The position numbers were made by a program, and so were the translations under genes. This document shows, piece by piece, positions 63,697 to 63,773 of a stretch of 64,000 bases of DNA (the first letter of the stretch is position 1; each line of letters opens with the position of its first letter). The notes below the pieces were generated by a model. The model was given only the letters and a program-made list of their open reading frames with translations, was not told where the DNA came from and ran no database searches. Origin of the DNA: a virus; the IMG/VR virus record IMGVR_UViG_3300009073_000002; one strand, given 5' to 3'.

Positions 63697-63773
63697 TTGG
63701 CACAATAGGATTCGAACCTATGTTTTCAACCGCTATCTTAGTCATGCGTATCAGGCATGCCGATTATGTGCCA
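63697..63773 (-). tRNA. atypical tRNA-like gene, anticodon-like loop GAU (Ile)
   Basis: Acceptor TGGCACA/TGTGCCA and T-arm ATAGG-TTCGAAT-CCTAT. The perfect hairpin CATGC-CTGATAC-GCATG starts 7 nt after the acceptor strand and is followed by 21 nt. Confidence 0.4.

Follow-up and report, generated by a model that had tools for sequence, protein, structure and literature searches.

The cloverleaf order of strands counts as universal for cytoplasmic and bacterial tRNAs. Permuted tRNA genes have their 3' half ahead of the 5' half, and a normal mature tRNA is regained when the RNA is processed. The tRNA-like structure (TLS) of turnip yellow mosaic virus (TYMV) and similar viral elements reach a tRNA-like L shape by a chain connectivity unlike that of tRNA. 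D-armless mitochondrial tRNAs are ~55-65 nt long, have lost the D loop and with it the elbow between G18G19 and the T loop, and work with adapted partner proteins (PMC7609411, PMC9427863). As to bacteria, all known tRNAs are cloverleaf according to a 2024 paper (PMC11551756). Here we describe M3, a 77 nt gene in the tRNA array of a viral DNA stretch of 64,000 nt (IMG/VR record IMGVR_UViG_3300009073_000002, in the following the window). M3 is probably a functional phage elongator tRNA-Ile (anticodon GAU, codons AUU/AUC), in which the segment ~10-21 is relocated to the variable region. Such an architecture was not described in the literature searched, which left subscription journals mostly outside, so a prior description is possible.

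Layout of M3 and its recognition by tRNA models

M3 is located at 63697..63773 on the minus strand and matches letter for letter the sequence given in an earlier, sequence-only reading of the window. On this strand the gene reads TGGCACA-TAATCGG-CATGC-CTGATAC-GCATG-ACTAAGATAGCGGTTGAAAAC-ATAGG-TTCGAAT-CCTAT-TGTGCCA-A. The corresponding RNA is UGGCACA / UAAUCGG / CAUGC-CUGAUAC-GCAUG / ACUAAGAUAGCGGUUGAAAAC / AUAGG-UUCGAAU-CCUAU / UGUGCCA / A. The stems described as perfect are indeed so (acceptor 7/7, anticodon arm 5/5), and the T stem is as well (5/5). The proposed complementarity of the linker ATC (RNA 10-12) to a downstream GAT (37-39) is also found. From the 5' to the 3' end of the RNA, M3 consists of the following elements.

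63767..63773, minus strand: 5' strand of the acceptor stem, UGGCACA (RNA 1-7); 7/7 pairs with 63698..63704, all 7 covarying in the family.
63765..63766, minus strand: U8 A9, invariant in 88/88 distinct family members.
63762..63764, minus strand: AUC, 5' strand of the long-range helix, corresponding roughly to the 3' strand of the canonical D stem (~22-24); pairs with GAU at 63735..63737.
63760..63761, minus strand: GG spacer, equivalent of position 26; all members have 1-2 unpaired nt here.
63743..63759, minus strand: anticodon arm CAUGC-CUGAUAC-GCAUG with the anticodon GAU at 63750..63752, which reads AUU/AUC (Ile).
63738..63742, minus strand: ACUAA, a connector resembling the variable loop (~44-47); most members have ~5 A-rich nt, consensus AGAAA.
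63735..63737, minus strand: GAU, 3' strand of the long-range helix, corresponding roughly to the 5' strand of the canonical D stem (~11-13); covaries with 63762..63764.
63722..63734, minus strand: D-loop-like segment AGCGGUUGAAAAC with the equivalents of A14, G15, G18G19 and U20; its tail ends in the C48 equivalent.
63705..63721, minus strand: T arm AUAGG-UUCGAAU-CCUAU; the family loop TTCRANT is invariant and the stem covaries.
63697..63704, minus strand: 3' strand of the acceptor stem, UGUGCCA, and discriminator A73; CCA is not encoded.

CCA is likewise unencoded in the canonical tRNAs adjoining M3. The anticodon loop carries C32, U33, A37 and C38 as in elongator tRNAs. The acceptor strands form both ends of the gene, so M3 is not a circularly permuted tRNA gene. 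From A9 to the anticodon stem there are 5 nt and no local D hairpin (nt 9-26), and the segment between anticodon arm and T arm measures 21 nt in place of the canonical variable region of 4-5 nt. Within the 21 nt segment of the M3 type we found neither self-pairing nor a conserved hairpin as expected for a class II arm; the segment pairs with the 5' linker. The sequence-only reading had likened it to a class II D loop. Its likeness to a D loop holds, whereas the class II label is loose, as the signature is the ordinary one (A14, R15, G18G19). The single-sequence fold of M3 gives z = -1.5, and a scan for promoters and terminators returned no signal above shuffles.

M3 had been listed as the third member of a class, and both other members exist. 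Their layouts were recognised by reading the gaps between the array genes.

59824..59903, plus strand: M1, re-ordered tRNA-Arg (UCU), loop CUUCUAA; 80-nt subtype with the helices CAC/GUG and AGC/GCU.
63286..63362, minus strand: M2, re-ordered tRNA-Ile (UAU), loop CUUAUAU; helix CGC/GCG.

In each of the three genes a linker trinucleotide is complementary to one just ahead of the D-loop-like motif: CAC/GUG in M1, CGC/GCG in M2 and AUC/GAU in M3.

ARAGORN, run on the window, leaves M3, M1 and M2 uncalled, and in the fetched loci it misses 100 of 105 family members. The tRNA model of Rfam (RF00005) assigns 39.7 bits to M3 (gathering score 29; E=6.9e-5 over the whole window), well beyond what chance would give. 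In this alignment the D arm is deleted (4 nt for 15), the variable region takes up 18 inserted nt, and CAUGC-CUGAUAC-GCAUG is placed in the anticodon arm with GAU as anticodon. No Rfam family besides tRNA explains M3. For M1 and M2 the Rfam scan yields no match even at E up to 10. A covariance model (R1) was built from 57 relatives (alignment A1). Within the window it scores M3 at 44.3 bits (E=2e-9), M1 at 62.6 and M2 at 82.3, while canonical tRNAs reach at most 27.5 bits. M3 hence belongs to the re-ordered class of phage tRNAs defined by this model, whose members run through acceptor, UA, linker strand, anticodon arm, ~5 nt, complementary strand, UA(A/G)..GG loop and T arm and have an Ile or Arg anticodon.

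Covariation of the long-range helix and conservation of the tRNA core

The long-range helix encloses the anticodon arm: the linker strand pairs with the bases just ahead of a UAAUUGG or UAGCGG motif. In a plain MAFFT alignment of 57 members its pairing reaches 95.9%, with covariation at each of the three pairs. The types at one of them are GC25/UA16/CG11/AU4. Further tallies, from 57-88 members, are CG32/GC31/UA17/AU8 at one pair and CG32/GC17/UA6/AU5 at another. The whole structure is 92% paired in the 57 members compared to 40-47% if the 3' partners are slid by 1-3 columns. Moreover, acceptor and T stems covary across the family. The model-based alignment (109 matches, 88 distinct) gives 94.6% pairing overall and 96.4% for the long-range helix, every pair of which covaries here too. 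RNAalifold predicts this helix unaided. The layout put forward from M3, with the anticodon arm ahead of the D-loop-like segment and ATC paired to GAT, is thus borne out by comparative data.

We aligned the M3 subfamily separately (alignment A2, 19 sequences). The proposed fold is 94% paired here, the anticodon stem 98% with covariation in 5/5 pairs. The equivalent of U11-A38 is kept in 17/19 sequences and that of C12-G37 in 19/19. Compensatory variants are U-A in M3, C-G in most sequences and G-C in one (L127), and the helix as a whole occurs as ATC/GAT, ACC/GGT or ACG/CGT.

The same relatives bear on an ordinary cloverleaf with the D stem ATCG/UGAU and a 3' anticodon arm whose loop GACUAAG would present CUA, similar to an amber suppressor. 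Four ATCG/TGAT pairs can indeed be drawn in M3, as can a bulged CGCAU/AU-A-GCG stem. In the 19 relatives, however, this D stem, which the sequence-only reading had already doubted, is 45% paired without compensatory change, and the anticodon stem is 63% paired. Moreover the loop would have A at position 33, the D loop would contain no GG, and the Rfam model favours the anticodon arm listed above. The comparative data refute this cloverleaf, and we regard it as scarcely credible.

A second helix closing the D loop (A9-U / U10-A) was considered for the main 77-nt type and is not supported, as C10 and G10 variants leave the A unchanged. The 80-nt Arg subtype (M1 and 20 relatives, with a linker of 8 nt) does show a second covarying helix, formed by A9-N-N and the three bases past GGA. 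It occurs as AAC/GUU (six times) and AGC/GCU (four times, the version of M1) as well as AGU/ACU and AUC/GAU, and it is 89% paired versus 9-41% in shifted registers. Hence the D loop of this subtype is a bulge inside a 6-bp helix.

For comparison with the tRNA core we mapped the 3' strand of the helix to canonical positions 10-13 and its 5' strand to 22-25, which yields equivalents of U8, A14, R15, G18, G19, A21 and Y48. U8, A9, the A14 equivalent, GG and the T loop UUCRANU are invariant in 88/88 distinct members, and G53-C61 is present in 87/88. Past the long-range helix come an invariant U-A, one purine (A or G), 1-2 pyrimidines and the invariant GG. The base ahead of the T stem is U or C and is itself preceded by A in 86/88. 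The equivalents of R15 and Y48 covary (A-U in 79 members, G-C in 7 including M3, with 2 exceptions). The nucleotides of the tertiary core (U8, A14, R15:Y48, G18G19, U54 U55 C56, A58) are accordingly all found as invariant or, for R15:Y48, covarying positions, and their contacts are predicted.

Cyanidioschyzon repairs its permuted tRNA genes after transcription, and RNA ligases occur in some phages; both speak for a transcript that is cut and re-ligated, e.g. by phage RNA repair enzymes, into the normal cloverleaf order. The acceptor halves of M3 are, however, already terminal. Circularisation would be useless, and two internal cuts plus an ordered re-joining would be needed. Moreover the gene order as found suffices to explain the covarying helix and the R15:Y48-like pair, and no conserved bulge-helix-bulge or intron-like motif is present at the junctions of the 88 members. 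Such a repair is very unlikely.

At the position-20 equivalent, i.e. the base past GG, all Arg members have A (41/41) and nearly all Ile members have U (44/47). As N73 the Ile members invariably carry A (47/47), and A, G and U occur among the Arg members. In Escherichia coli, Arg identity resides in A20, C35 and U/G36, and Ile identity in the discriminator, the anticodon and D-loop positions including D20 (PMC9976931). Judged by sequence, the patterns at position 20 and N73 match the rules of the E. coli arginyl- and isoleucyl-tRNA synthetases (ArgRS, IleRS).

Distribution of the family and decoding repertoire

Relatives were collected by pattern searches. A pattern of the D-loop motif plus T loop returned at least 120 loci in IMG/VR viral contigs. 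In the first 100 of these, model R1 finds 62 matches of at least 58 bits in 56 loci, and the next match scores 36 bits. A second pattern, the M3 tail GGUUGAAAAY plus T loop, returned 24 loci, 20 of which contain M3-like genes (19 GAU, 1 UAU). M3 groups with 20 GAU/UAU relatives that have the tail UUGAAAAY in common. The first pattern also gave at least 120 matches in 185,579 cellular genomes, with two true members among the 120 listed. One of these (L229) lies amid open reading frames (ORFs) matching phage protein families, the other (L176) on a 9-kb contig of a metagenome-assembled genome, adjoining three canonical tRNA genes. GenBank members derive from crAss-like phages (Kehishuvirus 'tikkala', cr130_1), Streptomyces phages (Mildred21, Braelyn and others) and Vibrio crassostreae phages. 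A restriction to phages of Bacteroidota, suggested by the helicase of the window phage (see below) and the crAss-like matches, is ruled out by the members in Streptomyces and Vibrio phages.

The family set comprises 109 matches in the model-based alignment, 88 of them distinct, from viral contigs and cultured phages. Members measure 74-92 nt, most often 77. There are several tail subtypes, most of which include both Ile and Arg members. The anticodons of the 88 distinct members are UAU (25), GAU (19) and CAU (3) for Ile, and UCU (28), UCG (5), CCU (4), ACG (3) and GCG (1) for Arg. Members are nearly always unannotated; in some Vibrio phages they are covered by a 'hypothetical protein'. The member of Mildred21 (L267 1495..1570; MF155946 91367..91442) was deposited as tRNA-Phe(gaa). 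Its loop CUUCGAA reads UCG (Arg), and the position-20 equivalent is A. The deposited label is likely a misannotation from a forced cloverleaf.

HNH endonuclease genes adjoin members in Mildred21 (directly upstream) and at other loci. In the window an HNH ORF (62819..63265, minus strand; phrog_14913, E=3e-36) lies inside the array and starts 20 nt downstream of M2. That members are specifically tied to HNH homing endonucleases, in the sense of an 'immune allele', is not supported: adjacency is found for 15/109 members and 56/608 canonical tRNAs (p=0.16). HNH ORFs within arrays, adjoining M2 and upstream of the Mildred21 member, could also hint at a decaying tRNA pseudogene or a functionless scar of rearrangement, e.g. 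by homing-endonuclease activity. Against such decay, there are 88 distinct sequences in very different phages (crAss-like, Streptomyces, Vibrio, marine contigs), all four canonical-type helices and the long-range helix are held by compensatory change, ~20 positions are invariant, and the HNH adjacency is, as stated, unenriched. We give this explanation next to no likelihood.

A third scan, based on a GTAATGG loop, again retrieved no isotypes but Ile and Arg, apart from a Tyr-type element of crAss001 and one doubtful Trp. The Tyr-type element is unannotated, 95 nt long and located at L121 3559..3653, corresponding to crAss001 NC_049977 4141..4235 (L269 3801..3895). It has the re-ordered layout with a Tyr anticodon in the loop CUGUAAA. 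A 5-bp helix, CAUCA/UGAUG, surrounds the anticodon arm, and a D-loop-like UAAUGG is flanked by an additional stem, CUCC/GGAG. It is 100% identical across 25 crAss001-like genomes. The element would supply the tRNA-Tyr that is absent from the annotated tRNAs of the fetched crAss001 stretch. The Trp candidate (L272 3153..3225, minus strand, 73 nt) has a CCA anticodon and an early anticodon arm followed by GUAAUGG; a long-range helix is not evident. It could represent yet another isotype, or the parse could be wrong.

In the window, the dense tRNA array at 59.5-64 kb contains 13 canonical tRNAs according to ARAGORN. None of them is Ile, and Arg is represented by ACG only. M3 starts 4 nt past tRNA-Asn, a spacing typical of arrays. 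The re-ordered trio adds the anticodons GAU, UAU and UCU, which read codons common in the window. Ile makes up 7.7% of all window codons (AUU 0.40, AUC 0.22, AUA 0.37, i.e. 62% AUU+AUC), and AGA accounts for 63% of the Arg codons. A similar complementarity to the canonical set is seen elsewhere. Only 14/105 members have an anticodon in common with a canonical tRNA of the same fetched stretch, and in near-complete arrays the member is the sole tRNA-Ile. In L132, for example, canonical tRNAs are present for 19 amino acids and none for Ile. In Kehishuvirus the slot between tRNA-Trp and tRNA-Met harbours a canonical tRNA-Ile(GAU) in crAss001 (L269 3324..3395) and a re-ordered Ile(GAU) in 'tikkala' (L121 2996..3072). 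The flanks of the two slots are nearly identical, which indicates a cassette replacement.

These observations also bear on a tRNA-shaped RNA that does not decode, be it a decoy or sponge for an anticodon nuclease or a modifying enzyme, a regulator, or an element for processing or punctuation of the array. An odd architecture confined to phages (~56 of the first 100 viral loci versus 2 among the 120 cellular matches listed, with L229 in a phage-like setting) would suit such a role, and the anticodon loops are perfectly canonical, as a decoy would require. However, a decoy needs neither A73 in 47/47 Ile members nor an A/U at position 20 that tracks the anticodon, and neither a covarying, intact 7-bp acceptor stem nor a T stem of the EF-Tu type. 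That members fill exactly the missing isotype and in one slot replace a canonical tRNA-Ile would be unexpected. We thus consider a non-decoding RNA unlikely. The label 'tRNA-like' of the sequence-only reading is probably too cautious, since the evidence favours a real decoding tRNA.

Two spacers of the array deserve mention in their own right. The spacer at 62028..62117 (minus strand), between tRNA-Phe and tRNA-Trp, shows a terminal stem of 9-12 bp (AUGAUUGAU/AUCAAUCAU) that encloses two hairpins similar to T arms, GAGG-UUCGAUU-CCUC and UCGG-UUCGAAU-CCGA. Its minimum free energy is -30.4 kcal/mol (z = -2.5), and neither ARAGORN nor Rfam gives a match. This spacer might hold a further unusual tRNA-like RNA or a remnant. 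Between tRNA-Pro and tRNA-Arg, the spacer at 59621..59706 (plus strand) contains CGGG-UUGGAUU-CCCG, which resembles a T arm, and its ends (GGUAGCC / GGUUUACC) are imperfectly acceptor-like. It folds no better than shuffled sequences do (z = -0.3).

The window has a G+C content of 35%, and its GC skew switches strand near 32 kb. It encodes a GroEL-like chaperonin (phrog_5725, 11859..13460, plus strand), a DNA methyltransferase and a clamp-like processivity factor. The phage helicase is closest to those of the gut phage csAssE-Sib, Cellulophaga phages and a Bacteroides phage, and a near-identity search of GenBank phages revealed no close relative. The window is probably part of a large uncultivated phage with a host among the Bacteroidota.

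Proposed mechanism and relation to known systems

What is established here is that the secondary structure covaries, that core and identity nucleotides are conserved, and that the members complement the canonical tRNA set. The functional tRNA-Ile that these findings point to could work as follows. The 5' strand of the D stem together with the D loop (~nt 10-21) would have left its place between A9 and nt 22 and come to lie immediately ahead of nt 48. Read from the 5' end, the chain would then run from the acceptor through U8 A9, the 3' strand of the D stem, nt 26, the anticodon arm, ~5 nt of variable loop, the 5' strand of the D stem, the D loop and Y48 to the T arm and back to the acceptor. 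The D-like helix and the anticodon stem would form a single extended hairpin. If the GG of the D loop reaches the T loop and U8:A14 and R15:Y48 form, the L-shaped core would be rebuilt by a different connectivity. We infer the L shape because of the known 8-14-21, 15-48, 9/45/46 triples and the 26-44 hinge in tRNA crystal structures. The RNA would be cut from the polycistronic array, gain CCA and be charged by the host IleRS. In this way M3 would supply Ile decoding to a phage rich in Ile codons.

The simplest reading of the family is one re-wired ancestor followed by later identity switches. The anticodons UAU and UCU are a single base apart, and position 20 toggles between U and A. As to why the wiring was kept, our best guess is that it evades a host or phage factor which senses the normal geometry of the D arm or the variable region. 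This evasion and, alternatively, altered hinge mechanics are speculation.

Several points weigh against a working tRNA-Ile. The long-range helix has only 3 bp, and its third pair, A10-U39, appears compatible with the alignment but not proven: the equivalent is A-U in 7 relatives of the M3 subfamily and U.U in most others. The covariation of R15:Y48 may stem from just one or two evolutionary events. The subtypes differ such that one three-dimensional picture may not suit all members. The restriction to Ile and Arg is accounted for by common descent alone. Statements on a sole tRNA-Ile refer to fetched stretches of at most 15 kb and not to whole genomes. Finally, the three-dimensional fold, derived from conserved and covarying positions, is a prediction, and so are processing, charging and use by the ribosome.

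A wider claim is put forward tentatively and is rather doubtful. Phages of at least three bacterial phyla might possess a full-length alternative tRNA topology, in which the D-stem strands flank the anticodon arm and which is charged by ordinary host IleRS or ArgRS. It might be kept for evading a tRNA-targeting nuclease or modification enzyme (Ile, Arg and, in crAss001-like phages, perhaps Tyr) or for decoding kinetics linked to the D/anticodon hinge. On this reading it would be the first tRNA outside the cloverleaf shown to function with a bacterial translation apparatus that is not adapted to it.

The re-ordered class represents a widespread, mostly unannotated tRNA variant in phages of several bacterial phyla. 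If the members are working tRNAs, phage tRNA repertoires are under-counted, with Ile and Arg systematically missed or misnamed. An L-shaped core could then be built with another chain connectivity, one acceptable to RNase P, the CCA enzyme, IleRS, ArgRS, EF-Tu and the ribosome alike. The family would moreover offer a natural scaffold for the engineering of orthogonal tRNAs and a fresh angle on the conflict between phages and hosts over tRNAs. Members in cultured phages of Bacteroides, Streptomyces and Vibrio make the class directly testable.

Compared to canonical tRNA-Ile(GAU) as modelled by RF00005, M3 has the same 7-bp acceptor stem, an anticodon arm of 5 bp and 7 nt, and a 5-bp T stem with UUCRANU. 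It keeps U8, A14, G18G19, R15:Y48 and A73, the length of 77 nt and the setting in an array. In contrast to canonical tRNA, the strands of the D stem flank the anticodon arm and the D loop is located between anticodon and T arms.

Class II tRNAs also have more than 20 nt between anticodon arm and T arm. Their extra nucleotides form a hairpin of their own next to a normal D arm, whereas those of M3 include the D-loop motif and have their pairing partner in the 5' linker. With D-armless mitochondrial tRNAs (tRNA-Ser(AGY/GCU), nematode) M3 shares a short linker in place of the D arm and an effectively extended anticodon helix. Unlike in these tRNAs, the D loop with its GG and the core are relocated rather than lost, and the molecule remains ~77 nt long, in a bacterial host.

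The order of gene segments differs from the cloverleaf also in circularly permuted tRNAs (Cyanidioschyzon merolae, some archaea; mentioned in PMC8450103) and split tRNAs. In contrast to permuted genes, the termini of M3 are normal and the swap is internal; hence the mature RNA should retain the new order. Viral TLSs lie at the 3' ends of plant RNA virus genomes, have a pseudoknotted acceptor arm and do not decode, whereas M3 is a free-standing gene in the array of a DNA phage and keeps both acceptor stem and anticodon loop in standard form. Metagenome mining has also yielded other non-standard architectures, some of them from phages, namely the allo-tRNAs and further 8/4 or 9/3 tRNAs (Mukai et al., PMC5389517). 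They alter the lengths of acceptor and T stems and retain the cloverleaf order, while the class of M3 keeps 7/5 and alters the order of the anticodon branch.

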